DNA from: Chloroflexota bacterium
GTDB taxonomy: Bacteria > Chloroflexota > Limnocylindria > Limnocylindrales > CSP1-4
Direction of reading: 5' to 3'
Assembly: GCA_046045415.1 (NCBI GenBank)
Contig: JBJOLT010000015.1
Location: 5,988 to 69,987 of the forward strand
DNA: 64,000 nt
Shown: positions 1 through 50,994 of the stretch, piece after piece
Position numbering within the stretch: the stretch's first letter is position 1
Layout: every line of letters starts with the position of its first letter
Made by a program: the position numbers and the translations under genes
Notes under the pieces: model-generated
What the model saw: only the letters and a program-made list of their open reading frames with translations
The model's database searches: none
What the model was told of the DNA's origin: nothing

Positions 1-892
1 CGAAGAAGAAGGGGGTGAAGATCGCGCGGAGCGGGAGGATCTCGTGCTCCAGCTCCTTCGCGACCTCGGTCTCCGCGATGATCAGGCCGGCGACGAACGC
101 CCCGATGATCGCCGCGAGCCCGACGAAGTCGGCGAAGAGCGCGAGCGCGAGCATGAGGATGAGCGCGGGGACGAGCGGGGTCTCGGCGAACCGGGGGAAG
201 GTGAACGCCTCGCGCGGGAGGCCGCGGACTCGCCGCGCGACGGCGAACCCGAGGCCCACGAGGCCCACCGCGGAGACGGCGACGAGGAGGGTCGCGGCGG
301 AGACGTCCCCCTCCACGGCCCCGGTGAGGAGCCCGATCGCGATCAGCGCGAGGACGTCGTCGATCACGGCCGCCCCGAGGACGACCCGGGCGAACGGGCG
401 CGACAGGACCCCCATCTCCGCGAGGACCCGGCTCGTGATCCCGATGCTCGTGGCCGCGAGCGCGAGGCCGACGAAGGCGGCGCTCCCCGCCTCCTCGCCG
501 ACCGCGAGCGCGATCGCGACGCCCGCGCCGAGCGGGAGGAGCATCCCGATCACGGCGGTCGCCACCGCCGCCCGGCCGACGGCGAGGAGGTCGTCGGTCC
601 GGACCTCGAGCCCCACGGCGAAGAGGAGGATGACGACGCCGATCTCGGAGAAGGTGATCGCCGTCTCGCCCGGGACGACGAGCCCGAGCGCATGGGGACC
701 GACGAGGAAGCCGCCGACGAGCTCGCCGATGACGGCGGGCTGGCCGAGGCGCCGAGCGACCTCCTCGCCGAGCTTCGCCCCGACGAGGAGGATGAAGAGC
801 CCGAGGAGGACGTCGGTGGGCGCGCCGCCCGCCGCCGGCGCGGCGATACCGCCCGGCAGCGGCGGCGCGATGAGCGCGAGCAGCCCGTCCAT
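1..892 (-). CDS. Monovalent cation:proton antiporter (CPA/Kef-NapA-like Na+/H+ exchanger), 3'-truncated at window edge
   Basis: The minus-strand translation starting at ATG 890-892 (MDGLLALIAPPLPGG...) is a multi-TM protein with Na+/H+-exchanger-like segments. The ORF runs off the window start. Confidence 0.7.
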   Translation of the reverse strand, partial: MDGLLALIAPPLPGGIAAPAAGGAPTDVLLGLFILLVGAKLGEEVARRLGQPAVIGELVGGFLVGPHALGLVVPGETAITFSEIGVVILLFAVGLEVRTDDLLAVGRAAVATAVIGMLLPLGAGVAIALAVGEEAGSAAFVGLALAATSIGITSRVLAEMGVLSRPFARVVLGAAVIDDVLALIAIGLLTGAVEGDVSAATLLVAVSAVGLVGLGFAVARRVRGLPREAFTFPRFAETPLVPALILMLALALFADFVGLAAIIGAFVAGLIIAETEVAKELEHEILPLRAIFTPFFF

Positions 893-905
893 CGACCCTC
901 CCCGG

Positions 906-933
906 CGCGGGCGCCGGCCGTCCGGCGCCCGCG
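906..933 (-). terminator. Perfect 12-bp GC-rich hairpin (CGCGGGCGCCGG-ccgt-CCGGCGCCCGCG) between the heliorhodopsin stop and the antiporter start
   Basis: Seen directly in the sequence. There is no U-tract, which is usual for high-GC actinobacterial intrinsic terminators. Confidence 0.4.
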
Positions 934-948
934 AGTCTCAGCGGCGGT

Positions 949-1770
949 TCAGCCGCCCGGGCGGAGCGTCCCCGTGAAGACCTGCCACGCGAGGAGGGTC
1001 TTCGCGATGAGGCTCATCGCCATGTACGTCTTCTCGCCGGCGAGGTAGTCCTTCCAGCGGCCCACCTGCTTGTACTGGAGGACCATCGTGATCGCGAAGA
1101 CGTTGAAGGCGAGGAAGAGCGACGCGATGATCGCGTAGACGAACGCCGGGATCTGCGCCTCCTCCGGGAGGTCCGGCTGGACGGAGTACGCGACGACGAG
1201 CCCGAGGATCGCGATCCACGGGATGATCCCGGCGATGCACCCGAAGATGTAGTGCTTCCAGTCGACCTTCTCGCCCTTGGCGAGCCGGCCCTCGTTCGCG
1301 GCCTCCATCGACCAGCCGAAGAGGTTCATCGCGACGTTGCAGCCGGCGATCGCGATGAGCGCCGAGAACTCGTTGATGAACGAGAGGCTGGAGATCGCGA
1401 GGATCATCACCGTCGAGCTGAACGCGTACTCCACCCAGCGGAGCGGGTTCATCCCCCGGGCGAGCCACCCCTCGTAGCGCGAGCGGAGGAACCAGCCGGC
1501 GGTCGCGTGGGCGAGCGCGCTCATCGCGAAGAAGCTCGCGATGAACCAGGCGAGCGGGATGTCGAAGAGGGCGAGCTGGACCTCCTCGAGGCCGGCGAAC
1601 GTGCCGTTCTCGAAGATCGGCTTCGCCGTCGTGATGAACGGCGCGAAGCGCGCCTCGGTCGTGCCGACCGCCACCATGACCACGGCCTGGATGCCGTGGA
1701 GGAGCGTGAGCGCGCGGTTCCACCGCGCGAGGGACCGGCTCCGGCCGGGATCGATCGCAGTCGCCGTCAT
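949..1770 (-). CDS. Heliorhodopsin (7-TM retinal-binding protein with inverted topology)
   Basis: The 273-aa protein aligns by eye to heliorhodopsin 48C12. Matching segments include RWVEYAFSSTVMIL, FGCIAGIIPWIAILG and MSLIAKTLLAWQVFTGTL. The TM7 Schiff-base lysine and the TM3 glutamate are conserved. Confidence 0.85.
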   Translation of the reverse strand: MTATAIDPGRSRSLARWNRALTLLHGIQAVVMVAVGTTEARFAPFITTAKPIFENGTFAGLEEVQLALFDIPLAWFIASFFAMSALAHATAGWFLRSRYEGWLARGMNPLRWVEYAFSSTVMILAISSLSFINEFSALIAIAGCNVAMNLFGWSMEAANEGRLAKGEKVDWKHYIFGCIAGIIPWIAILGLVVAYSVQPDLPEEAQIPAFVYAIIASLFLAFNVFAITMVLQYKQVGRWKDYLAGEKTYMAMSLIAKTLLAWQVFTGTLRPGG

Positions 1771-1864
1771 CGGTTCGTCGTCTCCTTCGAGCGCAACAAC
1801 ATTCCCGCGGGATGGGCCCGCACCCCTTCCGTTCGGCCGCGTCCTCGGCGCGGATGGCTCCCGG

Positions 1865-2965
1865 TCAGCGTCGGGCGACGTCCGGGTTCGGGAGGACGAT
1901 CTCGCCGACCGTCGCGACGAGGTCGTGGTACGACTTGATGAAGCCGCGGAGCGTCCGCATCGTCGCGCCGTACGAGTCGAACTCGTCGACCGTCATCCCG
2001 TCGGGCTCGTACGCGCGCCGGAAGTCCGGGATCCGCTCCTCGAGCTCCCGCACCGTCGCCGGGTCGACCGGCACCGCCATCCGCTCGACCGGGTCGATCC
2101 CGCTCGCGTTGAAGCGGGCCTGCCACGCGTGCGGCATCGTGAGGATGACGTCGCCGCCGACGAACTCGGTCCAGTGGAGCCGGTGGCGGTACGCGGCGGC
2201 GAGCGCCCGCGTCCGGTAGCCCCGTTCGCGGTAGATCGCGTAGGCCCGCTTGAAGGCGGCGACGCCCGCCCAGTTCGTCGCGTCGGGGTGGACCGCGATC
2301 GCGTCGCGCTCCACGAGGACCTTCATCCAGTCGTCGAGCCGCCCCACCATGAGCGTGCAGACGGGCGTCATCGACGCGACGTCGTGACCCGCCGCCTCGC
2401 GCCGGACGAGGCCGCGCTCCACCGCCTCGGCGACGGCGATCATCTGCGGGACGGTGAACGAGACGGTCGCGTTGACGCTCACCCCGTGGAAGGTCGCCTC
2501 CTCGATCGCGGCGATCCCGGCGCGCGTCGCGGGGAGCTTCACCTGGATGTTCGGCGCGAGCGCGGCGAAGCGGATCGCCTGCTCGAGCATCCGCTCCGGA
2601 TCGACGTAGAAGGTCGGGTTCGTCTGGAGCGAGAGGCGACCCTTGCGCCCCCCCTCTCGCTCGAAGACCGGCCAGAGGATCGCCGCGCCGCGGACGGCCA
2701 TCTCCTCGACGATCGCCCAGGTGAGGACCTCCTCGGTCCACGTCGGGTGCTCGGCGCGGAGGGCGAGGACCCGGTCGGTCCAGTGGGCCCGCTCCTTCTG
2801 CATCACCTCGAGGACGATCGACGGGTTCGAGGTGGCCCCGACGGCGCCCCGCTCGACGGCGTACGCGAGCTCCTCGACCGCGCACGAGTCGTTCCAGTAG
2901 TCGGTGAGGAAGCGGTCGGTCATCCGCTTCAGCGGGCTCTCGGTCGGCAGCATCGTCGTCGTCAT
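1865..2965 (-). CDS. tal: Transaldolase (long actinobacterial type)
   Basis: 366 aa with the TSNPS motif and transaldolase-family architecture. Confidence 0.85.
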   Translation of the reverse strand: MTTTMLPTESPLKRMTDRFLTDYWNDSCAVEELAYAVERGAVGATSNPSIVLEVMQKERAHWTDRVLALRAEHPTWTEEVLTWAIVEEMAVRGAAILWPVFEREGGRKGRLSLQTNPTFYVDPERMLEQAIRFAALAPNIQVKLPATRAGIAAIEEATFHGVSVNATVSFTVPQMIAVAEAVERGLVRREAAGHDVASMTPVCTLMVGRLDDWMKVLVERDAIAVHPDATNWAGVAAFKRAYAIYRERGYRTRALAAAYRHRLHWTEFVGGDVILTMPHAWQARFNASGIDPVERMAVPVDPATVRELEERIPDFRRAYEPDGMTVDEFDSYGATMRTLRGFIKSYHDLVATVGEIVLPNPDVARR

Positions 2966-2987
2966 CGTCGCGTCCCCATCGAGCGTC

Positions 2988-3827
2988 TCACGACCGCGGC
3001 GCGGCCGGGTCCCAGTCCATCAGCCAGCGGTGGTCCGGATCCACCGTGAAGTGCCAGGCCCGGTTCGGGCCCGCCATCACGTTCAGGTACCAGCCGTCGT
3101 ACCCGGCCGGTGCGCCGAACGGGTGATAGCCGCGCGGGACGAGGACGAGGTCGAGGTCGCCGACCGCGTAGGACTCGTCGAGCGAACGGTCCGCCGTGTA
3201 GACCCGCTGGAAGCCGAAGGCACCGGGCCGCGCGAACCGATAGAGGTAGAGCTCCTCGAGGAGCGCCTCGGTCGGCGGGTCCTCCGTATCGTGCTTGTGC
3301 GGCGGATAGCTCGACCAGTTCCCGCCCGGCGTGATCACCTCGAACGCGATGAGCCGGCCGGCCTCCATCGCGGGCGACATGAGGTGGTGGACCCGCCGCT
3401 CGGTGACGCCGCTCCCGCGCGTCTCGGCGCGGATCGCGTCGGCGGGGACGACCGCGGTCCGGTGGAGCGGGCCCGCCGGGGCCGAGGCGATCGCGACGAG
3501 CGAGTCGCGGGTCGCGGTCGCGGCGACGCCGACACCGGGTGCGACGAGGACGACCCCCGCGGGCGGGCCGTCGAAGACGGACGTCCGCGTCCCGACGGAC
3601 CCGGCGTCGACCCCGTCGAGCTCGATGCGGGCCGTCCCCTCGAGCACGAGGACGAGCCGCTCCCGGCCGTCCGCGGCAGGGCCGACCGAGCCGACCCGGT
3701 CGCCGTTCCGGAGCCGGTGGAGCTCGAGGCTCGTCCACGTCCAGCCGGCGTTCGACGGGTCGACCGCATGGACGAGCGACCCCGCGCCGGGACGGCGGAG
3801 GAGGGATCGGGCGCCCGCCGCGCTCAG
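2988..3827 (-). CDS. iolB: 5-deoxy-glucuronate isomerase IolB
   Basis: The C-terminal ~280 aa match IolB (LVHAVDPSN..., cupin-like YPPHKHD). There is no canonical start near the alignment start. The candidates are a CTG overlapping the iolD stop at 3827 or an in-frame GTG at 3926. Confidence 0.7.
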   Translation of the reverse strand: MSAAGARSLLRRPGAGSLVHAVDPSNAGWTWTSLELHRLRNGDRVGSVGPAADGRERLVLVLEGTARIELDGVDAGSVGTRTSVFDGPPAGVVLVAPGVGVAATATRDSLVAIASAPAGPLHRTAVVPADAIRAETRGSGVTERRVHHLMSPAMEAGRLIAFEVITPGGNWSSYPPHKHDTEDPPTEALLEELYLYRFARPGAFGFQRVYTADRSLDESYAVGDLDLVLVPRGYHPFGAPAGYDGWYLNVMAGPNRAWHFTVDPDHRWLMDWDPAAPRS

Positions 3828-5725
3828 ATGAGCTCCCGACGCTGGGCGGCGAGTCCGCGCTCGTAGCGGTCGCGCGCCTCGCGGACGTTCTTCTGCGTGC
3901 TCGCCTCGGGGACCGGGACGTCCCACCAGCTCTCCTGGCCGGGGACGCGCCCCGCGGGGTCGGTCGGGACGACGACGACGGTCGGCCGGTCGCCGCCCCG
4001 CGCCCGGTCGAGGGCGGCGCGGATCTCGTCGGGTGTCCGCGCGGCGATCGCGACGGCTCCCATCGACTCGGCGTGGGCACGGAAGTCGATCGGGACCCAG
4101 TCGCCGACGAGCCGGTTCCGTGCCGGGTCGCGGAACCGGAGCTCGTTCCCGAAGTCGCGGACGCCCGAGCTCCGGGCGAGGTCCTGGATGCACTGGAACC
4201 CGTGGTTGTCGAGGACGACGATCGTGACGGGAAGCCGCTCGGCGACCGCGGTGACGATCTCGGAGTTCATCATCAGGTACGAGCCGTCGCCGACGATCAC
4301 GACGACCCGCCGGTCCGGCTCGGCGAGCTGGACGCCGAGCCCCGCCGCGATCTCGTAGCCCATGCACGAGTAGCCGTACTCGAGGTGGTACGCCTTCGGG
4401 TCCTCCGGCCGCCAGAGCTTCAGGAGGTCGCCCGGGAGGCTCCCCGCCGCGCAGACGACCGTCGCGTGGCCGCCGACCGCGTCGTTCACGATCCCGATGA
4501 TCTCCGGCTGGGCGAGGAGGCCGCCGTCGGCCGCGGCCGCCCCGCCGCTCCCGTGACGGTACCCGTCGACGCGGGCCTCCCACGTCCGCTTCTCCTCGGC
4601 GACCCGCTCCCGATAGCGGGGATCGGTCCCGGTCCAGCCGGCGGAGCGGAGCGCGGTCGCGAGCGCGACGAGGGCCTCGCGCGCGTCGGCGACGAGCGGC
4701 GTCGCCCGCATCTTCGCCGCGTCCATCCCGCCGATGTTGATCCCGATGAACGAGACGTCCGGATCCTGGAAGGCGGTCCGCGAGGCGGTGACGAAGTCGC
4801 CGAGCCGGCACCCCACCGAGACGACGAGGTCGGCGTCCCGTGCGAGCCGGTTCGCGGCGAGGCCGCCGGCGGACCCGACCGGGCCGACGTTCCACGGGTG
4901 GTCCCACGGGAGCGCGCCCTTCCCGGCCTGGCTCTCGGCGACGGGGATCCCGAAGTCGGTCGCGAGGGCGTCGAGCGCGGCGGACGCCTCGGCGTAGATG
5001 ACGCCGCCGCCGGCGACGACGATCGGCCGCTTCGCCGCCCGGATCCGCTCCACCGCCTCCGCGACGAACGCGGGCTCGGGGAGCGGCCGCCGGATCCGCC
5101 AGACCCGCTTCTCGAGGAACGAGACCGGCCAGTCGTACGCCTCCGCCTGGACGTCCTCCGGGAGGCTGATCGTCACCGCGCCCGTCTCGGCGGGGTCGGT
5201 GAGGATCCGGAACGCCTCGGGGAGGCTCGAGAGGAGCTGTTCCGGGCGGGAGATCCGGTCGAAGTAGCGCGAGACCGGCCGGAAGGCGTCGTTCGCGCTC
5301 ACGTCGCGCTCCACCGGGTGCTCGATCTGCTGGAGGACCGGATCGACGAGCCGGTTCGCGAAGTAGTCGGACGGGAGAAGGAGGACCGGGAGCCGGTTCA
5401 CCGTCGCGGTCGCGGCGCCGGTCACCATGTTCGTCGCCCCGGGCCCGATCGACGAGGTGCACGCGTAGGCGCGGAGCCGGTTCGCGTGCTTCGCGAAGGC
5501 GGTCGCGACGTGGACCTGCCCCTGCTCGTTCTGCGGCCGGTAGTACGGGAGCGCGACCTCGTCGCCGAGCTCCTCGAGCGCCTGGCCGAAGCCGGCGACG
5601 TTGCCGTGGCCGAAGATCCCCCAGACCCCGGCGATGAAGCGCCCCTCGCGTCCGTCCCGCTCGACGTGCTGCGCCGCGAGGTGGCGGACGAGCGCCTGCC
5701 CGACCGTGAGCCGTACCGTCTTCAC
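3824..5725 (-). CDS. iolD: 3D-(3,5/4)-trihydroxycyclohexane-1,2-dione acylhydrolase IolD (TPP-dependent)
   Basis: 633 aa. The N-terminus MKTVRLTVGQALVRHL matches IolD, and the protein has a TPP-enzyme fold (GDGSYLM). Confidence 0.9.
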   Translation of the reverse strand: MKTVRLTVGQALVRHLAAQHVERDGREGRFIAGVWGIFGHGNVAGFGQALEELGDEVALPYYRPQNEQGQVHVATAFAKHANRLRAYACTSSIGPGATNMVTGAATATVNRLPVLLLPSDYFANRLVDPVLQQIEHPVERDVSANDAFRPVSRYFDRISRPEQLLSSLPEAFRILTDPAETGAVTISLPEDVQAEAYDWPVSFLEKRVWRIRRPLPEPAFVAEAVERIRAAKRPIVVAGGGVIYAEASAALDALATDFGIPVAESQAGKGALPWDHPWNVGPVGSAGGLAANRLARDADLVVSVGCRLGDFVTASRTAFQDPDVSFIGINIGGMDAAKMRATPLVADAREALVALATALRSAGWTGTDPRYRERVAEEKRTWEARVDGYRHGSGGAAAADGGLLAQPEIIGIVNDAVGGHATVVCAAGSLPGDLLKLWRPEDPKAYHLEYGYSCMGYEIAAGLGVQLAEPDRRVVVIVGDGSYLMMNSEIVTAVAERLPVTIVVLDNHGFQCIQDLARSSGVRDFGNELRFRDPARNRLVGDWVPIDFRAHAESMGAVAIAARTPDEIRAALDRARGGDRPTVVVVPTDPAGRVPGQESWWDVPVPEASTQKNVREARDRYERGLAAQRRELI

Positions 5726-5771: not shown

Positions 5772-6776
5772 TCAGCGGTTCTTCCGCTCGTCGATGATGA
5801 TCGCGGCGACGATGATCACGCCCTTGACGACCTGCTGGTAGAAGGGCGAGACGTTCAGCAGGTCGAGGCCGTTGTTCATCACGCCGATGATCAGCGCTCC
5901 GACGACGGTCCCCCAGACGGTCCCGATCCCGCCCGCGAAGCTCGTCCCGCCGATGACGGCGGCCGCGATCGCGTCGAGTTCGTACCCCATCCCGAGGGCC
6001 GGCGTCGCCGACTCGACCCGGGCGGTGAGGACGACGCCGCCGAGGCCCGCGAGGAGCCCGGAGATCATGTAGATGAAGACCTTCGTCCGCGCGACGTTGA
6101 TCCCGGAGACCCGCGCCGCGGTCTCGTTCCCGCCGATCGCGTAGATGTGGCGGCCGAAGCGCGTGAAGTTCAGCATCACGTGCATGAGGACGACGACCGA
6201 GAGGAAGACGACGATCGGGACGGGGATCCCGAGGAGGTCGCCGCCGCCGATCCAGAGGAAGTCCTCGTTCAGCGTCGAGACCGGCCGCCCGTTCGAGTAG
6301 ATGTACCCGAAGCCGCGGGCCGCCGTCATCATCCCGAGCGTCGCGATGAACGGCGGGATCCTGAAGCCCGCGATGAGGAGGCCGTTCGTCATCCCGAGGA
6401 GGAGTCCGACGCCGAGGCCCGCGAGGACGGCGACGATCCCCGGGAGCTCGAGGCCCGGGTAGAGCGCCTGCTTCCAGCCGGGCTGCTGCACGAGGCTCGC
6501 GGCGACGAGCGCCGAGAAGCCGAGGATCGACCCGAGGGAGAGGTCGATCCCGAGCGTGATGATGCAGAGCATGACGCCGAGCGCGAGCAGGCCGATGACG
6601 GAGATCTGGCGCACGACGTTCAGCAGGTTCTGGCCCTGGACGAACGAGTTGTTCGGGGAGAAGACGGCGAGGATCGTGCACATCCCGAGGAAGATGAAGA
6701 CGATCAGGTACTTCCTCACGAAGCCGCTCGCGGCGGTCCGGTCGAAGCGGCCGGCGGCGGCCGGGGCAGCGGTCAT
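5772..6776 (-). CDS. Sugar ABC transporter permease (RbsC/inositol-type)
   Basis: 334 aa, about 10 TM segments, branched-sugar permease family. Confidence 0.85.
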   Translation of the reverse strand: MTAAPAAAGRFDRTAASGFVRKYLIVFIFLGMCTILAVFSPNNSFVQGQNLLNVVRQISVIGLLALGVMLCIITLGIDLSLGSILGFSALVAASLVQQPGWKQALYPGLELPGIVAVLAGLGVGLLLGMTNGLLIAGFRIPPFIATLGMMTAARGFGYIYSNGRPVSTLNEDFLWIGGGDLLGIPVPIVVFLSVVVLMHVMLNFTRFGRHIYAIGGNETAARVSGINVARTKVFIYMISGLLAGLGGVVLTARVESATPALGMGYELDAIAAAVIGGTSFAGGIGTVWGTVVGALIIGVMNNGLDLLNVSPFYQQVVKGVIIVAAIIIDERKNR

Positions 6777-6791
6777 CGTCCTCTTCCTCCG

Positions 6792-8291
6792 TCAGGCCGC
6801 CGGGGCGGCGATCGTCGCCGCCTCGAGGACCTTCTCCTGCGTCACGTCCGCGCGGGTGAACTCGGCGGTGATCCGGCCCCCGGCCATCACGAGGACCCGG
6901 TCGCTCATCCCGAGGATCTCGGGGAGCTCCGACGAGACCATGAGGATCGCCTTCCCCTGCTTCGCGAGGCCGGACATGAGGCGGTGGATCTCCGCCTTCG
7001 CGCCGACGTCGATCCCGCGGGTCGGTTCGTCGATCATGAGGATCTCCGGGCCGGTGAGGAGCCAGCGCGAGACGAGCACCTTCTGCTGGTTCCCGCCGGA
7101 GAGGAGCCGGATCAGCTGGGCGAGGCTCGGCGTCTTGATCGCGAGCGCGTCCCGCTCGCGCGCGCACTCGACGTCCATCTGCCGCTTCCGGAGGAAGCCG
7201 CCGGGGCTGAACCGGGCGAGGCTCGCGACCGTCATGTTGTCGCGGACGGGGAGGACCCCCATGATCCCGGTCAGCTTCCGGTCCTCGGTGAGGAGGCCCA
7301 TCCCGGCGGCGATCGCGTCGGCGGGCTGACGGATCCGGATCGGCTTCCCCTCGACGAGGACCTCGCCGCGGTCCACCTTCGTGACGCCGAAGATCGCCTC
7401 GAGGACCTCGGTCCGCCCCGCGCCCATCAGCCCGGCGAGGCCGAGGATCTCGCCCCGGCGGAGGTCGAACGTGATGTCCTCGATGACGCCCTCGCGGGTG
7501 AGGCCGCGGACCGAGAGGACGACCTCGCCGATCGCGGCATGCTCCTTCGGGAAGAGGTGGGTCAGCTCGCGCCCGACCATGAGCGAGATGAGCTTCTGGC
7601 GGTCGAGCTCGCCGGCCTCCTTCGTGGCCACGTGCCGGCCGTCGCGGAAGACGGTGACGCGGTCGGCGATCCGGAAGACCTCGTCCATCTTGTGGGTGAT
7701 GTAGATGACCGCGACGCCGCTCCCGCGGAGCGACCGGATGATCCGGTGGAGGTGGGCGACCTCGCGCTCGCTGATCGCCGAGGTGGGCTCGTCCATGACG
7801 ATGAGCTTCGCGTCGTAGGAGATCGCCTTCGCGATCTCGACCATCTGCGTCTGCGCGACGCTCAGGGTCCGCATGACGGCGCGCGGGTCGATCTCGATCT
7901 CCCAGCGCGCGAAGAGCTCGCGGCTCGCGGCGATCATCCGGCGCCGGTCGACGAGACCGAGGCGGTTGAGCGGCTCCCGCCCGAGGAAGATGTTCTCCGC
8001 GACGATCATCTCGGGGACCGGCGCGAGCTCCTGGTGGATCATCGAGATCCCCAGCCGGAGCGCGGTCGCGCTGTCGGGGATCGCCACGTCCCGACCGTCG
8101 AAGTGGATCGTCCCGGCGTCGGCGTGGTAGATGCCGGCGAGGACCTTCATGAGCGTCGACTTGCCGGCGCCGTTCTCGCCCATGAGCGCATGGACCGTCC
8201 CGCGCTCGACCTCGAGGTGGACGTCGTCGAGCGCCTGGACGCCCGGGAACGCCTTCGAGATGCCCGTCATCCGGAGGAGCGGCTCACCCAT
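6792..8291 (-). CDS. Sugar ABC transporter ATP-binding protein (duplicated ABC domains, RbsA-like)
   Basis: 499 aa with Walker [10 protein letters not shown] and a second ABC domain. Confidence 0.9.
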
Positions 8292-8443
8292 CCCTGCCTC
8301 GCGACCTCAGGCTCGTCACACTGCCGCCGGTCACCGTGAACCGGCCCTGAAACGCCGTTCGGAGGCCCGGCGAACCGGGCCTCCGAACGGTACCACTCGC
8401 GGTGTTCGCTTCGACCGCCCCGGAGGGACGGCCTCGCGGGCTC

Positions 8444-9412
8444 CTAGTTGGCGCCCAGGTAGTCCGCGATGTTCGCCGGGGTCACGAGGACATACGGGAT
8501 GTCGACGTAATCCGGCACGGTCTTGCCGTTGATGAGGTCGACGGCCGCCTGGACGCCGCCGCCACCCTGGCCGCTCGCGTCCTGGAAGACGGTGACCTCG
8601 AGCTCGCCCGCCTGCATCGCGGCGAGCGCCTCGGAGGTCGCGTCGACACCGCCGACGAAGACCGTGTCGAGGAGCCCGGCCGCCTTGAGGGCGTTGATCG
8701 CGCCGAGCGCCATCTCGTCGTTGTTCGCGCAGACGACGTCACCGGCCTTGAGGATGCCCGACTGGATCCAGTTCTCGGTGATCGCCTGGCCCTTCGCGCG
8801 GTCCCAGTCGCCGGCCTGCGTCGCGGCGACCTTCATCCCGACCTTCGCCGCAACGTCGTTGCAGCCCTGGGTCCGGAGGACGGCCGCCTCGTTCGAGACC
8901 TGGCCCTGGAGGATGACGATGTCACCCTTGTTGCCGGCGAGCTTCGCGAGCTCCTCCATCTCGACCGTGCCCGCGTAGAGCGAGTCCGAGCCGACATAGG
9001 GGACCCCGGCCTGCGACGGGTTCCGGTTGACGTAGACGAGCGGGATCCCCGCCGCCTTCGCCGCATCGGTCATCGGGCCGGCGGCGCTGGTGTCGACCGG
9101 GACGACGACGATCGCGGAGACCTTCTGCGAGATGAAGTTCTCGACCTGGCTGAGCTGGGTCGCGACGTCATCCTTCGCGTCGGTGATGACGAGCTCGACG
9201 CCGAGCTCCTCCGCCTTCGCCTTCATGCCGTCCTGGACGCGGCTGAGGAACGTGTCGCTGTTCGGGAACGCGGCCCCGATCGTGATGTCGCCGCCGCCGC
9301 TCCCGCCGTCGGCGGGGGCCTCGGACTCGGTCGTGCTCCCGGAGCACGCCGCGACGACGAGCATCGCGGCCATCAGCAGGCTCGCGAGCTTCCCGGTGCG
9401 CTGGAACGCCAT
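8444..9412 (-). CDS. Periplasmic sugar-binding lipoprotein (substrate-binding protein of the ABC importer)
   Basis: Signal peptide plus lipobox (VVAACSG) and a periplasmic binding protein type I fold. A GGAGGA Shine-Dalgarno sits 8 nt upstream. Confidence 0.85.
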   Translation of the reverse strand: MAFQRTGKLASLLMAAMLVVAACSGSTTESEAPADGGSGGGDITIGAAFPNSDTFLSRVQDGMKAKAEELGVELVITDAKDDVATQLSQVENFISQKVSAIVVVPVDTSAAGPMTDAAKAAGIPLVYVNRNPSQAGVPYVGSDSLYAGTVEMEELAKLAGNKGDIVILQGQVSNEAAVLRTQGCNDVAAKVGMKVAATQAGDWDRAKGQAITENWIQSGILKAGDVVCANNDEMALGAINALKAAGLLDTVFVGGVDATSEALAAMQAGELEVTVFQDASGQGGGGVQAAVDLINGKTVPDYVDIPYVLVTPANIADYLGAN

Positions 9413-9639: not shown

Positions 9640-10617
9640 TCAGCGCGCCGGGAGCGGCCGACCGGGACCGAGGCCGATCCCCTCGAAGTAGACCCGGGTC
9701 CGGGTCGCGACGGGGAGCGGAGCGTCGAGCGCGCAGCCGAGCATGTCCTGCTCGACGATGCAGAAGAGGTCGCGGTCGAGCGCGGCGAGGGCGTCGAGGA
9801 CCGGCTCCATCGCCGGCTCCCCCTTCGGCGGCTCGATCATCACGCCGCGGCGGCAGGCCGGAGCGAAGCCCCACTGCTCGGCCTGGGCGCGGTCGCGGAC
9901 CGCCGGGTCCACCTGCTTGAGGTGGACGTACGCGATCCGCTCCGGGAAGTCGCGGATCAGCGCGAGGCTGTCGGCGCGGCCGTAGGCGACGTGGCCGGTG
10001 TCGAGGCAGAGGTTGACGTAGCGCGGGTCGGTCCCGTCGAGGAGGCGGACGATCTCGTCGTGCGTCTCGACATGGCTGTCCGCGTGCGAGTGGTAGACGA
10101 GCTTGAGGCCGTGCTGCTCGAGGAGGTACTTCCCGAGCTCGTCGTGGAGCGCCATCAGGTCGCGCCAGCCGTCGTCGGCGAGCGACCGGTCGATCGCCGG
10201 CTTGCCGTCGAGGTCGGTCGTCCCCTCGGGGAGGATCACGACGTACTCGGCGCCGAGCGGGAGGAGCGTCCGCGCCTCGGCGTCGCACGCCTCCTTCGCC
10301 TCCTGCCAGGCGGCACGCCCCCGCTGGAGCTTCGTCTGGACGGTCCCGCCGGTGAGCGTCAGGCCGCGCCGGCCCAGCTCCTCCTTGAGGCGGACCGGAT
10401 CGCTCGGGTTGTAGCCGTAGGGGCCGAGCTCCGTGTAGCGGTAGCCGGCCTTCGGGACCTCGTCGAGGTACTGCTCCCACGGGACCTGCTCGGGCGTGTA
10501 CGGGAACCAGACGCCCCAGGAGTCCGGGGCCGTCCCGAGGTGGAGCTTCGAGTAGTCGCGCGGGCTCACGTGGTCCTCCTCCGTGCCGCGCCGGCGCCGC
10601 GTGAGCGCGTGGTCCAT
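9640..10617 (-). CDS. iolE: Inosose (2-keto-myo-inositol) dehydratase IolE, xylose-isomerase-like TIM barrel
   Basis: 325 aa aligning to IolE (KLHLGTAPDSWGVW...). The start may instead be the GTG at about 10571. Confidence 0.8.
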   Translation of the reverse strand: MDHALTRRRRGTEEDHVSPRDYSKLHLGTAPDSWGVWFPYTPEQVPWEQYLDEVPKAGYRYTELGPYGYNPSDPVRLKEELGRRGLTLTGGTVQTKLQRGRAAWQEAKEACDAEARTLLPLGAEYVVILPEGTTDLDGKPAIDRSLADDGWRDLMALHDELGKYLLEQHGLKLVYHSHADSHVETHDEIVRLLDGTDPRYVNLCLDTGHVAYGRADSLALIRDFPERIAYVHLKQVDPAVRDRAQAEQWGFAPACRRGVMIEPPKGEPAMEPVLDALAALDRDLFCIVEQDMLGCALDAPLPVATRTRVYFEGIGLGPGRPLPAR

Positions 10618-14654: not shown

Positions 14655-14718
14655 CGGAGCCCGGCCGGCGGACCGCGCCGGCCGATCGGTCCCGCAGCGT
14701 GCGTCGACCGCGGCGTCT

Positions 14719-14796
14719 GGTCGGGGCGGCCGGATTCGAACCGGCGATCTCGTGCTCCCAAAGCACGCGCGTTGCCAGACTACGCCACGCCCCGAC
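14719..14796 (-). tRNA. tRNA-Pro (anticodon UGG)
   Basis: The reverse complement gives CGGGGCGTGGCGTAGTCTGG...CTTTGGGAG...GGTTCGAATCC...CCGCCCCGACCA, a cloverleaf with a 7-bp acceptor stem and a UUUGGGA anticodon loop. Confidence 0.8.
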
Positions 14797-19864: not shown

Positions 19865-21166
19865 CTACCGCATCGACCAGCCGGCGCCGAGCCTGAGGAC
19901 CTGACGCGGGCGGAGCTGCCGGCCGCGGGAGGTGTTCGTCGTGTCGACGACGAGCGAGGCCGTCGCATAGACCGCCGCCCAGTCGATCGCGGCATGGGGC
20001 GTGAGCGCCACGACGACATCCGATCCGGCGAGGAGCGGCTCGAGCGCCGTCGAGGTCCGCTCGGTCCCGGCGGCATCGGCGAAGCGAGGGACGTGCGGGT
20101 CGTGGTACTCGACCGCCGCGCCGCGCTCGGCGAGGAGCGCGATCACGTCCGCCGCCGGCGAGTTCCGGGGATCCCGGACGTCGGCCTTGAAGGCGACCCC
20201 GAGGACCCCCACCCGCGCTCCCTTGAGGGCGCGGCCGCGGTCGTTCAGCGCCTCGGCGACGAGGTCCGCGACGTGGCGCGGCATCGCGAGGTTGATGTCG
20301 CCGGCGAGCTCGACGAACCGGTCGACGAAGTCGAACTCGCGGGCCCGCCACGAGAGGTAGTAGGGATCGACCGGGATGCAGTGGCCGCCGACCCCCGGCC
20401 CGGGCCGGAACGGCATGAAGCCGAACGGCTTCGTCGCCGCCCCGTCGATCACCTCCCAGACGTCGAGCCCCATCCGCTCGCAGAGGAGGGCGAGCTGGTT
20501 GACGAGCGCGATGTTCACGTTCCGGAAGACGTTCTCGAGGAGCTTGGCGAGCTCGGCCGCGTCGGGCGAGCTCATCTCGACGACCGTCGCGTTGATCCGG
20601 CGGAGGAGCGTCGCCGCCCGGGCGGTCGCCGCGGGTCCGAGGCCGCCGACGAGCCGCGGGACGTCGCGCCGCGCGCTCGCCGGGTCGCCGGGGTTCACCC
20701 GCTCGGGTGCGAAGGCGAGGTCGAAGTCCCGGCCCGCGGCGAGTCCGCCCGCCTCGAGCGCGGCCCGGAACGGGCCGGTCGTCGTCCCGGGGAAGGTCGT
20801 CGACTGGAGGACGACGAGCTGGCCTCGCCGGAGCGAGCCGCGGACGAGCGCGGCGGCCGAGAGGACCGGCTCGAGATCGGGGTCCTTCGAGCGGGTGATC
20901 GGCGTGGGGACGCAGACGAAGAGCCCGTCGACCGCCCCGAGGTCGGCATCGTCGACGTGGGCGATCGACAGGCCGGTCCCGAGCGCCGCCCGGAGCCGCG
21001 CGTCGTCGACGTCGTCGATCGGCGAACGTCCCGCCGCCAGCTCGGCGACGCGCTCGCGGCTCGCATCGACGCCGACGACCTCGAGGCCCGCCTCGACGAA
21101 CGAGATCGCGAGCGGGAGCCCGACGTAGCCGAGCCCGACGATCGCGAGGCGCTGGTCGGCGGTCAT
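19865..21166 (-). CDS. Nucleotide-sugar (UDP-glucose/GDP-mannose family) 6-dehydrogenase
   Basis: 434 aa with an N-terminal Rossmann motif ([13 protein letters not shown]) and catalytic GGHCIPVDP. Confidence 0.85.
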
Positions 21167-22380
21167 CCGGACGAGGATACCGGACGTCCCGGGCCGCTCA
21201 TCAGGCGATCGACGACCGCGAGGTAGCGCGGCGCCTCCGCCTCCCACGAGCGCTCCCGGGCGAGCGCGAGCGTCCGTCCGACCCGCGCCGCCCGCGCCTC
21301 GGGCTCGTCGACGAGCGAGAGGATCGCGGCGGCCATCGCGGCGGCGTCCCCCGGCTCGTACGCGAGGACGCTCCCGGGCGGGCAGGTCGCCTCGACCATC
21401 GGGAGCCGGGTCGCGACGACCGGCTTCCCCATCGCCGCGTACTCGAAGATCTTCGTGGAGAGGCTGACGTCCGTGAAGGCGTCGCGGCGGGTCGGGGCGA
21501 GCCCGACGTCGGCGGCCGCGAGGACGGCGGGGACCTCCTCGAGCGGGATCCGGCCGTGGAGGCGGACGCGGTCGGCGATCCCGCGCGCGGCGGCGAGGGC
21601 GGCGAGCGCGGGGGCGGTGTCGCCCCGGCCGTAGATGTCGAACACGAGCGCGAGCTCCGGGCGCCGCTCGCGGATGAGCGCGACCGCCTCGACGGCCACG
21701 TCGACCTCGTAGGTCGGCGTGAGGGCGCCCGCGTAGACGAGCCGGAGCGTCCCGTCGGCCATGAACGCGCGGACCGGATGGGCCGCGGGGTCGAAGCGGG
21801 CGAGGGCGGCGAGGTTCCGGACGACGCTCACCTTCCGCACCGGGACGCCGGCGGCGAGGAGCCGCGCCTCCAGCGCCTCGTTCACGACGAGGACCTCCGA
21901 TGCGATCGCGACGGCGAGCCGCTCCTGGAGGACGAGGAGCGCGTGGGCGACGGGGTTCGCGGCCGCCGGGAAGCGGCTCCGGAAGAACTCGGGCATCGCC
22001 TCGTGGAAGTCGACGAGGAGCGGGACCCCGGCGAGCCGGAGCGGGAGCGCCGCGGCCGCGAGCAGGTCGGGGATCGTGTGGACCTGGACGAGCCCGTACC
22101 GGCGGCGGCGGTGCGCCCGGACGAGCGCGATCGTCGAGCGGACGAGGAAGTCGAGGTACTCGGCGGCGTACCGGCCGATCCCCGCCCCCTGGTGGCGCTG
22201 GACCCCGAGCCGGGCGACCCGGACCCCGGCGATCGTCGCCTCCGACGGCTCCCCCGGCCGCCGGAGCGCGATGACGTCGACCTCGCGGCCGGCGGCGACG
22301 AGCGCCTCGGCCTCGCGCCTGACGCGCGGATCCTCGTCGTAGTACGAGTGGACGATCATGCAGACCGGCGGGCGGCTCAC
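21163..22380 (-). CDS. Glycosyltransferase family 4
   Basis: 405 aa with a GT-B fold and a C-terminal GT4 donor-binding region ([18 protein letters not shown]). ATGA overlap with the dehydrogenase start. Confidence 0.8.
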
Positions 22381-22440
22381 CCGCTGATGCTATCGGCTCG
22401 GCCGCCGCCACCGTGCGGGGGCGTGCTACCGTGCGCGCCG

Positions 22441-23334
22441 ATGGAGAGAAGCCCCGCGCCGGCCGCCGAGGACGGCGTCGCGCTCCGCTCGACCGCCGAC
22501 CGGCCGGGACCGCTCGGGCTGATCCGCGAGGCGATCGCCGAGACCGCGTCCCGCCGCCGGCTGATCCGCTACCTCGTCCAGGCGGACCTGAAGAAGAAGG
22601 GGTCGGACACCCTCCTCGGGAACGTCTGGTGGATCCTCGACCCGCTCCTCCAGATGGCGGTCTACGTCGTCCTCGTCACCGTCATCTTCCAGCGGACGGT
22701 CCCGGACTACCCGCTCTTCATCTTCGCGGCGATCCTCCCGTGGAAGTGGTACACGAGCAGCGTGAGCGACGCGATCGGCTCGGTCGTCGGCCAGGAGCGG
22801 CTCATCAAGCAGATCCACTTCCCGAAGCTGATCCTCCCGACCGCGACGACGGTCGCGGGGATCGCGAACTTCGGCTTCGGGCTCGTCGCCCTCGCCGGGC
22901 TCCTCGTCGTCTTCTACGCGGACCGCGCGTCGCCGTACCTCCTCCTCCTCCCGGCGATCGCCGCGGTCCAGCTCGTCCTGACGCTCGCGGTCGCGTACGT
23001 CGTCTCCGCCGTGAACGTCTTCTTCCGCGACGTCGCGAACGTGAGCCGGCACGCGCTCCGGATCTGGTTCTACCTCTCGCCCGGGCTCTACGGCGCCGAC
23101 GCGATCGAGGCGCTCAGCGAGACGAACCCGCTCGTCGCCGACCTCATGCGGCTCAACCCGTTCTACACGCTCTTCGAGTCGTACCGGGCGGTGATCTACG
23201 GGACGGCGGCCGGCGGGCCGACGAGCCCGCCGTGGGCGGAGCTCGCCGCGTGGGGCCTCGGTTCGGTCGTCCTCCTCGCGCTCGCGACGTTCGTCTTCAA
23301 GCGGCTCGAGCCCGCGTTCGCGAAGGTCCTCTGA
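22441..23334 (+). CDS. ABC-2 type polysaccharide/teichoic-acid export permease (Wzm/TagG/KpsM-like)
   Basis: 297 aa, 6 TM, ABC-2 family. Confidence 0.8.
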   Translation: MERSPAPAAEDGVALRSTADRPGPLGLIREAIAETASRRRLIRYLVQADLKKKGSDTLLGNVWWILDPLLQMAVYVVLVTVIFQRTVPDYPLFIFAAILPWKWYTSSVSDAIGSVVGQERLIKQIHFPKLILPTATTVAGIANFGFGLVALAGLLVVFYADRASPYLLLLPAIAAVQLVLTLAVAYVVSAVNVFFRDVANVSRHALRIWFYLSPGLYGADAIEALSETNPLVADLMRLNPFYTLFESYRAVIYGTAAGGPTSPPWAELAAWGLGSVVLLALATFVFKRLEPAFAKVL

Positions 23335-24179
23335 TGGCCGACGAGCGACTCCATCCCGACGCGGTCGACGCGACCGCCCCGACGGTGATCGACGTCCATG
23401 GGCTCGGCGTCCGCTACAGCCTTCGGCTGACCCGTCGGAACACCGTCCGGCAGTCCTTCGCGAACCTGCTGAAGCCGCGCGAGGGCCCGACCGACTTCTG
23501 GGCGCTCCGCGACGTGACGTTCCGGCTGATGCGGGGCGAGTCGCTCGCGGTGATCGGGCCGAACGGCGCCGGGAAGTCGACGCTCCTCCAGGCGCTCGCC
23601 GGGATCATCACGCCGTCCGAGGGGGAGATCGCCGTCCGCGGCCAGATCTCGAGCCTCCTGACGCTCGGCGCCGGCTTCGACGCGGAGCTGAGCGGGCGCG
23701 ACAACATCATGCTCGCCGGCGCGTTCATGGGGATGGACCACCGGGAGATCGAGCGGCGGATCGACGGGATCATCGCGTTCGCGGACATCGGCCAGTTCAT
23801 CGACGCCCCGATCAAGACGTACTCGTCCGGGATGCGGGCGCGGCTCGGCTTCTCGATCGCGACCTCGGTCGACCCGGACATCCTCCTCCTCGACGAGGTC
23901 CTCGCGACCGGCGACCAGGTCTTCCGGGCGAAGTCGCAGGCGCGGGTCCTCGAGCTCGTCCGCGCGGCGAAGGGGATCGTCCTCGTGACCCACGACATGA
24001 ACTGGGTGACCGAGTTCTGCAACCGGGCGCTCCTCCTCGAGGGAGGCCGGATCGTCGCCGAGGGGGATCCGGCGGAGATCGTCGCGATCCACCGCGAGCA
24101 CTCCGAGCGGGTGAAGGCCGAGAAGCTCGCCGAGGCGGCGCGGCTCCTCGCGGGCGCGCGCGAGGGCGGCGGCCGCTAG
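23334..24179 (+). CDS. Polysaccharide/teichoic-acid export ABC ATP-binding protein (Wzt/TagH-like)
   Basis: Walker A GPNGAGKST, signature YSSGM, Walker B LLLDE. TGATG overlap with wzm. Confidence 0.85.
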   Translation: MADERLHPDAVDATAPTVIDVHGLGVRYSLRLTRRNTVRQSFANLLKPREGPTDFWALRDVTFRLMRGESLAVIGPNGAGKSTLLQALAGIITPSEGEIAVRGQISSLLTLGAGFDAELSGRDNIMLAGAFMGMDHREIERRIDGIIAFADIGQFIDAPIKTYSSGMRARLGFSIATSVDPDILLLDEVLATGDQVFRAKSQARVLELVRAAKGIVLVTHDMNWVTEFCNRALLLEGGRIVAEGDPAEIVAIHREHSERVKAEKLAEAARLLAGAREGGGR

Positions 24180-25519
24180 GCCGGGACCGGCGGGCGCCCG
24201 CCCGCGGGCGGCGGGGCGTCAAGAGGCGGCGGCGCGTCGCGGGGCGGCGGGGGGACGAGCCGTGCCGCGAGCGCGAGGTACGGGACGACGGCGGTCTCCC
24301 AGTTGTACCGCTCCCTGGCGGCGGCGAGCGCGCGGGCCCGCATCGCCTCGCGCTCGTCCGACGGGGCCTCGAGGACCGCTCGGAGCGCCCGCCGCAGGTC
24401 GGCGACGTCGCCCGGGTCCGCGACCGCGCCGATCCGCTCCGCCTCGAGGATCGAGCGCATCACCTCGAGGTCGCGGCCGAGGACGATCGGGGTCCCCGCG
24501 GCGAGCGACTCCCAGAACTTGTTCGGCGTCGAGAGCCGCTGGTTCAGCGAGCCCGCGGGGACGGCGATGATCGTCGCGTCGGCGGAGGCGGTCCAGGCCG
24601 GGACGTCGTCGGGGTGCACCGGCGGGAGCGTCACGTGGCGGCCGGCGTAGCGCGGGTCGCGGTCGCGCTCGCGGAGCCGCTCCGCCCACGGCCCGAAGCC
24701 CAGCATGACGAGCGCCGCGTCCTCGAGGCCGAGGACCGCCTCGGCGGCCTCCTCGAGCCCGCGCTCTCGGCCGAGCCGCCCGAGCCAGAGGACGACGCGC
24801 CGCTCCGGCGGGAGTCCGGCCGCCGCGCGGATGAGGTCGGGCCGGCGCGCGGGCGGGTCCCATCGCGGCTGGCAGTTCGCGAGGACGGTCGGGCGGGTCC
24901 GGACCGGCCAGGTCGCCGCGAGGTGGTCGGCGAGCGGCTCGTTCACGGTCACGACCGCGTCGGCGCGCCGGACCCAGCCCCGCTCCCGTGCCGCGTAGGC
25001 GGCGACGAGCGGGCGCGGCAGCCCGGCGACGTTGTTCGACTCGAGGATCACGTCGATCACGTCGTAGACGACCCGGCCCTCGCGGCCCGCGCGGCGCGCG
25101 GCCGCGGCGAGCGGGAGCGCCACCCCGACGGTGAGGATCCCGCACGCGTGGTAGAGATCGGCCGGCGGCAGCTCCGCGCGGAGCGCCGCCCACCAGCCGC
25201 GGGCGTTGAGCGGCCAGGCGAGCGCCTTGGCGGCGACGTCGACGAGCCGTCGGATCGCCGCGAGCGGCCCGCGCCGACGGCCGCGCGAGCCGGTGGCGGC
25301 GCCGACCGCGTACCGGGCGAACGGGCCGCGCGGACGGTAGCGGCGGATGACGACCCCGGAGCGGCCGTCACGCTCCGTCTCGGGGACCTCGGGGCGCGCG
25401 GCCTCCGCGAGCGCGGCGATCTCCACCTCGAACCCGGCCCCCTCGAGACTCCGGGCGACGCGGAGGCCGCGCGAATAGGGAGCGGCGGCGTTCGCGACGA
25501 GGACGACGGCGCGCCGCAC
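24176..25519 (-). CDS. Glycosyltransferase, GT-B (GT4-like), paralog 1 of a tandem triplet
   Basis: 448 aa. The C-terminal motif GSLNQRLSTPNKFWESLAAGTPIV is shared with the two upstream paralogs. A GTG start was chosen; it overlaps the wzt stop via CTAG. Confidence 0.7.
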   Translation of the reverse strand: MRRAVVLVANAAAPYSRGLRVARSLEGAGFEVEIAALAEAARPEVPETERDGRSGVVIRRYRPRGPFARYAVGAATGSRGRRRGPLAAIRRLVDVAAKALAWPLNARGWWAALRAELPPADLYHACGILTVGVALPLAAAARRAGREGRVVYDVIDVILESNNVAGLPRPLVAAYAARERGWVRRADAVVTVNEPLADHLAATWPVRTRPTVLANCQPRWDPPARRPDLIRAAAGLPPERRVVLWLGRLGRERGLEEAAEAVLGLEDAALVMLGFGPWAERLRERDRDPRYAGRHVTLPPVHPDDVPAWTASADATIIAVPAGSLNQRLSTPNKFWESLAAGTPIVLGRDLEVMRSILEAERIGAVADPGDVADLRRALRAVLEAPSDEREAMRARALAAARERYNWETAVVPYLALAARLVPPPPRDAPPPLDAPPPAGGRPPVPA

Positions 25520-25575
25520 GGGCGGGGGCGCCGGCGGCGGGGCGACCGGGCGGGGGGCGCGACCGGCGGGGCCGC

Positions 25576-29497: not shown

Positions 29498-29525
29498 GCG
29501 GAGAGCCTACCCGCCGCCGGGCGGG

Positions 29526-32005: not shown

Positions 32006-32015
32006 CGGGCGGGGC

Positions 32016-33787: not shown

Positions 33788-33965
33788 GGGTGGGAAGGGC
33801 TCCTTCGACGGCGCGCGACGGGGGCTCGGCGAGCGCGGCGCGAGCGCGACCGAGGCGTGGCGGAGTATACCGGAGCGGCCCTTCGGGACCCGGCGGGCGA
33901 CGGGCCGATCCCGTCGGTCCGACGCGCTCGGGCAGGTGGGCGCGGGCCGGTCGCCCTCCCCGGCC

Positions 33966-37796: not shown

Positions 37797-37814
37797 CGAC
37801 GACCCGGGCCCGGG

Positions 37815-38867
<1,053 letters not shown>

Positions 38868-38953
38868 CCGGGCGTGTGTCCCCACGGGCTGGTGATGAAG
38901 GCACCGCAGTATACCCGCCGCCCCCACGCGGACTCTCGGGAGCGATGCGGCGC

Positions 38954-50899: not shown

Positions 50900-50994
50900 G
50901 GGGACGAGTATCGGTCAGGCGGGCCGCCGGGTCCACCCTCCCGGGGACGGTCGGGGGACCGGCCCGGGGAGGGGGCTCGTCGCGACCCCCTACA

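Follow-up and report, generated by a model that had tools for sequence, protein, structure and literature searches.

The 64,000-nucleotide stretch of DNA considered here, referred to at its full length as the window, derives from a Chloroflexota bacterium (Limnocylindria; Limnocylindrales; CSP1-4; GenBank assembly GCA_046045415.1, contig JBJOLT010000015.1, positions 5,988 to 69,987 of the forward strand). Near its first letter, three minus-strand genes follow one another in the direction of transcription: an aldolase-type gene, here called 'tal', which closes an inositol-type sugar operon, a heliorhodopsin (HeR) gene, and the gene of a cation:proton antiporter (Table 1). A first reading of the same letters (the original prediction) had recorded the position of HeR beside carbohydrate catabolism genes as informative for guilt-by-association analyses. 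When the locus is compared with other HeR loci these neighbours do not recur, while a two-block motif in the spacer between 'tal' and HeR, CCATCC-N16-CGAA, which the original prediction had missed, is found upstream of HeR genes in differing surroundings and has the form of a promoter for an extracytoplasmic function (ECF) sigma factor. We regard it as probable, at about 0.6, that HeR here stands on its own as a gene of an ECF regulon for stress or light, with its partners encoded elsewhere.

The HeR open reading frame runs on the minus strand from an ATG at its 1770 end to a TGA at its 949 end. Its product matches the Pfam family PF18761 (Heliorhodopsin) over model positions 1-242 of 242 (E=1.7e-79, 267 bits against a cut-off of 26.7) and the NCBIfam equivalog NF038020 (255.8 bits against a cut-off of 100). 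A PDB sequence search places 48C12 and the Thermoplasmatales archaeon HeR (E~2e-47) closest among solved structures, and the family comprises 4087 database clusters at E<=1e-20. The closest relatives of HeR, and likewise those of the antiporter and the tal-like protein, are found in Chloroflexota metagenome-assembled genomes, most of them labelled Candidatus Limnocylindrales. The protein is a genuine and ordinary member of a known family, belonging to a clade of bacterial HeRs.

Pairwise alignment with 48C12, which extends over the full length at 37% identity, places the Schiff-base lysine at K257 (48C12 K241), within the motif LIAKTLLAWQ (residues 254-263) of transmembrane (TM) helix 7, and the counterion glutamate at E114 (48C12 E107), within the motif RWVEY (residues 111-115) of TM3. 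The lysine is invariant in 26 clade members, and the glutamate and the histidine pair H25/H88 (48C12 H23/H80) are also invariant in the clade. Further residues of 48C12 that are retained comprise S237, Q26, N101, R104, W105, Y108, E149, Y226, E230, and W246, with S253, R111, E156, Y242, and E246 among the corresponding window numbers. Only two of the compared residues differ, S109 being replaced by A116 and Q213 by M229, the latter invariant in the clade. The compared residues are ones whose importance is known from the structural papers on 48C12 and TaHeR.

An AlphaFold2 model built on the 26 clade members is of moderate confidence (pLDDT 71, pTM 0.65) and contains seven TM helices (8-35, 73-94, 109-129, 135-158, 171-196, 209-234, and 239-266) together with a β-hairpin in extracellular loop 1 (ECL1), between TM1 and TM2 (residues 45-67; strands 45-54 and 57-67). 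When compared with the PDB by Foldseek, the model has HeRs as all of its top 10 matches (TM-score 0.67-0.79, E from about 1e-14 to 5e-12), and type-1 rhodopsins are reached only at E>1e-3. The original prediction had called the protein a clear heliorhodopsin, had named the TM7 lysine and TM3 glutamate motifs, and had proposed alignment to 48C12 and a seven-helix topology as checks; all of this stands. The window HeR shares with 48C12 (PDB 6SU3/6UH3) and the Thermoplasmatales HeR (6IS6) the lysine, the glutamate, the His23/His80 pair, Ser237, and the polar residues of the cytoplasmic cavity, as well as the fold of seven TM helices and a long ECL1 β-hairpin (TM-scores 0.70-0.79). It differs from them in being longer in ECL1 and in the TM4-TM5 and TM5-TM6 loops, and in having a Chloroflexota (Limnocylindria-like) host, whereas theirs are Actinobacteria or Archaea. 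Lysine and arginine residues number about 15 in the N-terminal tail and intracellular loops 1-3 (counted by eye, with helix-flanking residues included) vs. 3 in ECL1-3 and the C-terminal tail, a distribution that, as a positive-inside prediction only, is consistent with the inverted topology in which the N-terminus is cytoplasmic. The cytoplasmic loops are positively charged and are among the most conserved parts of the HeR clade.

Upstream of the HeR coding region, the 'tal' stop codon TGA occupies positions 1867 to 1865, leaving a spacer of exactly 94 nt. Within this spacer, on the minus strand at positions 1857 to 1832 and ∼87 nt upstream of HeR, lies an exact copy of CCATCC-N16-CGAA. If the two blocks act as −35 and −10 elements, transcription would start near position 1825 and the 5′ untranslated region would be ∼55 nt long. 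The motif was counted in 131 HeR upstream regions, at positions −130 to −15 relative to the start codon, with 300 dinucleotide-preserving shuffles as the control. Exact copies are present in 41 of the 131 regions, against an expectation of 0.04 and a maximum of 1 in any of the 300 shuffles, and tolerating a single mismatch brings the count to 55. The spacer measures 16 nt in all 41 sites, lengths of 12-15 and 17-19 nt never being seen, and the HeR motif sites all fall between 59 and 93 nt upstream of the start codon. The loci total 3.27 Mb, and on both strands together they contain only 55 exact copies, of which 42 precede HeR. The blocks are fixed as CCATCC(G) and CGAA, the spacer and flanks carry ∼0.1 bit per position, and no dyad symmetry is evident. 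Two fixed blocks separated by an unconserved spacer of constant length are typical of a sigma-factor promoter and not of an RNA structure or dyad operator.

The motif is found upstream of HeR despite differing neighbours in the window, in loci L084, L001, and L002 (L numbers denote individual loci of the comparison), and in the 5′ part of L083; because it is kept beside HeR where the upstream genes differ, it travels with HeR and not with the neighbours. That HeR carries its own conserved, putative promoter motif suggests that the gene is transcribed from its own signal rather than on the tail of the sugar operon. A second CCATCC is found at positions 1810 to 1815 of the minus strand, in the presumed 5′ untranslated region, and is followed 20 nt later by a CGAA directly adjoining the Shine-Dalgarno sequence; the arrangement is kept in L081 and L082, and its spacing is wrong for the motif. 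It may be left over from a duplication of the promoter, in which case the two classes of motif position, near −87 and near −61, would be explained.

Related loci contain SigK-like ECF sigma factor genes, and all four of these are themselves preceded by the motif, in two exact copies and two that differ by a single mismatch. It is located at −35 relative to their start codons, as would be expected of an ECF operon that is autoregulated and almost leaderless. The encoded protein has Sigma70_r2 and Sigma70_r4_2 domains, the next gene specifies an anti-sigma factor with zf-HC2 and RskA_C domains, and a cyclopropane fatty acid (CFA) synthase homologue is located just upstream. The best solved relatives of the sigma factor are Mycobacterium tuberculosis SigK (E=2e-32) and then Rhodobacter sphaeroides RpoE (2Q1Z; E=9e-24); the anti-sigma factor had no match when searched against PDB sequences. 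Motif copies that do not belong to HeR precede the ECF sigma gene itself (L046, L058), SRPBCC genes (L046, L064, L101), genes for fasciclin, cupin, and Oxidored_molyb (MsrP-like) proteins, and an NADPH-FMN reductase gene divergent from HeR. Together these copies outline a candidate SigK-like regulon in Limnocylindria, of which HeR would be a member by virtue of sharing a two-block motif of fixed spacing with a putatively autoregulated sigma gene.

Two characterized ECF systems resemble this arrangement. In the singlet-oxygen regulon of Rhodobacter and Pseudomonas, controlled by RpoE-ChrR (ECF11), the consensus is TGATCC-N16-CGTA and the core regulon consists of photolyase, cfaS, and short-chain dehydrogenase/reductase (SDR) genes (PMC5507510). 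The shared architecture is xxATCC-N16-CGxA, and the gene content is largely the same; in the Limnocylindria loci, however, the blocks are CCATCC instead of TGATCC and CGAA instead of CGTA, and the anti-sigma factor is of the RskA type rather than a ChrR with a cupin domain. The mycobacterial SigK-RskA regulon (ECF19-like) has in common with these loci a SigK-like sigma factor, an RskA_C anti-sigma factor, a CFA-synthase homologue, and fasciclin proteins, although in the present case the sigma and anti-sigma genes are outside the window. The CFA-synthase-like gene ufaA1 is part of the mycobacterial sigK locus, and the SigK consensus in mycobacteria is CCATCC-N16-CCGAAT; no heliorhodopsin is known in the mycobacterial SigK regulon. 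That regulon is made up of the sigK locus together with the fasciclin genes mpt70 and mpt83 (PMC4105308), its fasciclin genes are light-induced in M. kansasii (PMC9861118), and its stimulus has been described as unknown (PMC7509140). No published link of heliorhodopsin to an extracytoplasmic sigma factor or to Limnocylindria was found in a limited open-access check, in which six papers naming both heliorhodopsin and sigma factors seemed from their titles to be unrelated. The HeR-ECF promoter link appears to be new, as a property of a clade and not of this window.

It could be argued that CCATCC-N16-CGAA is an operator or leader element and that HeR is transcribed from a housekeeping promoter or by read-through: the motif is short, the transcription start is inferred only, and scans of positions 600 to 3100 for sigma-70 promoters and intrinsic terminators found nothing, the sigma-70 consensus being uninformative in a phylum of high G+C content. 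The strict 16-nt spacer without conservation or dyad, the placement of the motif before all four SigK-like genes, and its nearness to the published ECF consensus speak against such an element. The same is true of the RNA searches, since Rfam, applied at the gathering threshold to the whole window and at an E-value threshold to positions 850 to 1950, returned only a tRNA-Pro and one chance-level match, with no family assigned to the spacer, and the HeR 5′ untranslated region folds no better than shuffled sequence. We consider an operator or leader element unlikely.

Several observations nevertheless weigh against assigning HeR to an ECF regulon. Statistics confined to the window are not significant, with three matches at one mismatch or fewer against 5.4 expected, and the weight of the putative promoter comes only from the comparison across loci. 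No terminator separates 'tal' from the motif, and read-through from the iol operon is possible. Roughly 58% of related HeR loci are without the motif, most of them of the class with LitR and glutamine synthetase (GS) islands described below. A complete Pfam annotation found no retinal or carotenoid genes and no LitR, GS, photolyase, or ECF sigma factor gene in the 64 kb of the window, and tblastn likewise detected neither the sigma nor the anti-sigma factor there. Finally, the light-related or oxidative nature of the stimulus would rest on analogy and gene content.

Neighbour genes that do recur beside related HeRs were identified by de novo clustering in 83 HeR loci. A B12-binding MerR regulator of the LitR/CarH type and an SRPBCC plus NAD(P)-binding protein are each encoded in 23 of these loci, a GS-family gene is present in 21, an amino-acid permease in 14, a photolyase in 10, and a Kef/TrkA_N antiporter, within four genes of HeR on either side, in 8; genes for fasciclin, DUF4397, SDR, and Cu/Zn superoxide dismutase proteins are also recurrent. 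These agree with the published HeR neighbour groups, which include GS, photolyase, MerR, SDR, and ABC transporter genes (PMC11109279). An interaction of HeR with GS has been shown experimentally (PMC9529153), one with photolyase has been published (as cited in PMC11109279), and binding of GS and of an ABC transporter takes place via charged residues of the cytoplasmic loops (PMC9529153; PMC11109279). The AbHeR-glutamine synthetase, TfHeR-photolyase, and OcHeR-OmrDE ABC transporter systems have conserved positively charged cytoplasmic loops in common with the window HeR, and GS-like and photolyase neighbours are found in sister Limnocylindria; the window differs from all three systems in that no such partner is adjacent to HeR or within 64 kb. 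HeR does not form an operon with a known type of partner here, since the TAL/FSA gene and the CPA2 antiporter are both absent from the published list and non-recurrent.

Many Limnocylindria contain what may be termed a 'light island', in which genes for photolyase and a LitR/CarH-type MerR+B12 regulator are divergent from DUF4397, SRPBCC+NAD(P)-binding, and HeR genes. HeR is followed by a GS-family gene, an amino-acid permease gene, a gene for a 295-aa protein without a Pfam domain, a Cu/Zn superoxide dismutase gene, and often a Kef/TrkA_N antiporter gene. Examples are L004, L009, L017, L022, L025, L036, L041, and L061, among others, with HeR near position 10001 in each.

The motif is unevenly distributed between these surroundings, being present upstream of 6 of 34 HeRs of the LitR/GS/photolyase island vs. 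25 of 45 HeRs in scattered contexts, the class to which the window HeR belongs. Since the HeRs of the LitR islands are mostly without the motif, the two circuits look like alternatives. The motif is carried, however, by a small group of loci ordered CFA synthase, ECF sigma factor, RskA, LitR, HeR; the one-strand order ECF sigma factor, RskA, LitR, HeR is seen in L042, L046, and L058, and in L064 a SigK-like ECF gene is upstream of HeR. In Streptomyces, a LitR/CarH light regulator is paired with an ECF sigma factor as LitR-LitS. The ECF-RskA-LitR-HeR loci recall this pairing, although the window itself is without LitR. Only 11 HeR positions separate GS-linked HeRs from those with the ECF-type promoter, nearly all of them conservative exchanges in TM helices; a partner-interface signature in HeR was rejected, since just one of the 11 lies in a cytoplasmic loop.

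The conservation of the window's own neighbours was examined in 145 HeR loci, assembled from 80 loci of species-level genomes, 61 loci of metagenomes, and the contigs of the closest database proteins; the fetched genome and metagenome loci encode HeR relatives of 61-74% identity, and a metagenome scan for closer relatives found none above ∼72% over the whole protein. In tblastn searches of this set, homologues of tal or iolB were detected near HeR only in L081 and L082, which represent the same population as the window (HeR 97% and tal 99.5% identical), and homologues of iolD, the iol ABC permease, and the binding protein were not found near any other HeR; the antiporter, searched in the same way, did not recur beyond this population either. 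In L084, with a HeR of 74% identity, the context is entirely different. The tal-HeR and HeR-antiporter adjacencies, both confined to one population, are best read as a rearrangement junction and not as a functional cluster, and the sugar-gene and antiporter neighbours of HeR are an accident of lineage. The recurrence of the tal-HeR pair, which the original prediction had suggested checking, is thus limited to the window's own population, and the position has little value for guilt-by-association.

On the downstream side, HeR could be a light-dependent regulator of the adjacent CPA2 antiporter, the two being co-transcribed through the intervening hairpin; this would be a pairing of two membrane proteins comparable to that of HeR with the ABC transporter. 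The antiporter starts with an ATG at position 892, on the same strand and after a gap of 56 nt, the hairpin is without a U-tract and may not terminate, and the Kef-type TrkA_N antiporters near related HeRs lend the idea a precedent. Those Kef proteins, however, are ∼30% identical to the window antiporter and have another domain architecture, and are not its orthologues. True orthologues are numerous (70-77% identity), and in all four contexts obtained (loci examined, L147-L152) they belong to a conserved block, mreD-PBP2-rodA-CBS-CitMHS-antiporter, which is flanked by AI-2E transporter, DnaJ, and L21/L27 genes and is without HeR; the antiporter was accordingly ruled out as a conserved HeR partner. 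One locus, L083, appeared to offer an independent HeR-antiporter pair that had outlived the tal-HeR pair, and was rejected as such when it was found to be a mosaic with L081. When L083:1-1140 is compared with L081 and with window positions 892 to 1870, its identity to L081 is 100% from HeR nucleotide ∼500 onward, across the hairpin and the antiporter, but falls to 75-92% in the first ∼500 nt of HeR and to ∼40% in the DNA upstream. The mosaic arose either by recombination within HeR or as a chimera of the metagenome assembly, and it therefore provides no independent support for the HeR-antiporter pairing. A regulatory link between HeR and this antiporter is thus improbable.

In the window, mreB and mreC are found at positions 36813 to 38927 and are followed by a gene with an FlgD_ig domain, with no mreD, PBP2, or rodA gene after them. 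This gene order points to a rearrangement specific to the lineage, one that would also have produced the junction of HeR with the antiporter.

The hairpin between HeR and the antiporter is real, as the original prediction had noted, but its strength is unexceptional: the centroid energy of −29 kcal/mol corresponds to z = −1.19, with 26 of 200 shuffles folding equally well in DNA of 74.5% G+C, and in lacking a U-tract it is not a canonical terminator. It is not a repeated element within the window. Its stem is identical in L081-L083 with differing flanks, these contigs being of one population. It may serve as a terminator, an attenuator, or a stabilizer of the mRNA end.

On the upstream side, HeR might be coupled to the tal/inositol genes as the last gene of their operon, exerting light regulation on an operon enzyme or on the sugar ABC transporter. 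The original prediction was correct in placing HeR 94 nt downstream of tal on the same strand and in recognizing an inositol cluster, iolB and iolD both passing their NCBIfam equivalog cut-offs, and no terminator-like site intervenes between tal and HeR. A sugar ABC transporter is encoded 4 kb upstream of HeR, one HeR is reported to modulate an ABC transporter, albeit a multidrug exporter (PMC11109279), and co-transcription of actinobacterial HeRs with a sugar dehydrogenase gene has been observed (PMC8612252). These points are outweighed by the near absence of the sugar genes from the other HeR loci, by the start of the clade-conserved motif only 7 nt past the tal stop codon, and by the contexts of 'tal' orthologues (71-76% identity), which in both of the two other genomes are followed directly by an aldehyde dehydrogenase gene and not by HeR, and we consider the coupling very unlikely.

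The 'tal' gene had been taken for a transaldolase, which is not sustained. Its product reaches 123.7 bits in its best NCBIfam match against a cut-off of 367 (NF002881) and is below cut-off in all eight transaldolase models, yet it retains the Schiff-base lysine motif VKLPAT and is ∼30% identical to Corynebacterium glutamicum transaldolase. By these matches it is classed as a TAL/FSA family member, not a canonical transaldolase, and as lying outside the HeR unit. The gene follows iolB at a distance of 22 nt, and the inositol-type operon to which both belong has no iolC (kinase), iolJ (aldolase), or iolA inside the window. Speculatively, it could encode a non-phosphorylating aldolase that converts 2-deoxy-5-keto-gluconate to dihydroxyacetone and malonate semialdehyde.

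Finally, a light-driven or light-gated ion transporter or a light-dependent enzyme is the least credible account of HeR: some viral HeRs transport protons (as cited in PMC11109279) and an enzymatic role has been proposed for the cytoplasmic cavity (PMC7771536), but the compared residues are, except for A116 and M229, those of the non-pumping 48C12, and the window HeR belongs to the bacterial clade and not to the viral group.

Table 1. Features of the HeR locus in the window, and motif copies at other genes in related loci.
Feature	Position	Strand	Remarks
CPA2 (Kef-type) cation:proton antiporter gene	2..892	−	Downstream neighbour, cut by window edge; Pfam PF00999, TIGR00932
Hairpin	906..933	−	Perfect 12-bp G+C stem (906..917 / 922..933), 4-nt loop; between HeR stop and antiporter start
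HeR coding sequence, 273 aa	949..1770	−	Pfam, NCBIfam, and PDB matches, AlphaFold2 model, Foldseek, residue mapping
Shine-Dalgarno sequence AAGGAG	1782..1787	−	Read from sequence; ATG 11 nt downstream; kept in L081, L082
−10-like block CGAA	1832..1835	−	Same motif match as the −35-like block
−35-like block CCATCC	1852..1857	−	Exact match; begins 7 nt past tal stop
'tal', divergent TAL/FSA-family class I aldolase gene	1865..2965	−	Upstream neighbour; Pfam PF00923; last gene of iol-type operon
iolB	2988..3836		
iolD	3824..5725		
ABC transporter (sugar)	5772..9412		
iolE-like gene	9640..10617		
Non-HeR motif copies	L046:2591, 6434, 12425; L058:2609, 14530; L064:4038		
Non-HeR motif copies, continued	L066:9724; L084:14621; L101:1576		

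Elsewhere in the window, a large cell-surface polysaccharide cluster at positions 19865 to 34751 comprises genes for two UDP-glucose/GDP-mannose dehydrogenases, an ABC-2 exporter pair, three GT4 and one GT2 glycosyltransferases, a UDP-GlcNAc 2-epimerase, a Gfo/Idh/MocA oxidoreductase, a DegT aminotransferase, and a hexapeptide acyltransferase. At positions 50570 to 52047, the genes for a cyclic-di-AMP receptor (PF06153) and a GAF-GGDEF diguanylate cyclase are divergently oriented. The tRNA-Pro (TGG) gene, at positions 14718 to 14794 of the minus strand, is the only RNA gene in the window and its only match at the Rfam gathering threshold.

Under the preferred reading, in which HeR is a self-contained member of an ECF regulon, the unit would consist of an ECF-type promoter, a 5′ untranslated region with a Shine-Dalgarno sequence, the coding sequence, and the G+C hairpin, located at the point where, specifically in this lineage, an inositol-type sugar operon adjoins a housekeeping antiporter gene. 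In response to light-related or oxidative stress, a SigK/RskA-type ECF sigma factor would become active and transcribe HeR from the promoter at 1857 to 1832. The product would bind retinal and act as a non-pumping photoreceptor with its N-terminus in the cytoplasm, and on illumination would use its conserved, positively charged cytoplasmic loops to modulate partner proteins, as other HeRs do; candidate partners suggested by the related loci are a GS-like protein and photolyase.

A bolder proposal, which we regard as improbable, is that HeR is itself the sensor of the SigK/RskA system. Light-activated HeR would act on the single-pass RskA, directly or by photo-oxidation, and release the sigma factor, which in turn would raise HeR expression in a positive feedback. 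The proposal is prompted by the shared motif, by the sigma-RskA-LitR-HeR order in three loci, and by the light-induced fasciclin genes of M. kansasii. If true, it would provide a transducer for HeR and a named stimulus for the SigK-RskA family.

The functions of HeRs have mostly been read from their gene neighbours; at this locus the neighbours mislead, while the promoter motif travels with HeR across contexts. If the promoter assignment is true, a large group of Chloroflexota HeRs would belong to an ECF stress regulon related to those of SigK-RskA and RpoE-ChrR, which would supply a testable expression condition (light, singlet oxygen, or sigma factor activation) and a set of co-regulated genes in which to search for partners, together with a hint that the SigK-RskA family may respond to light.

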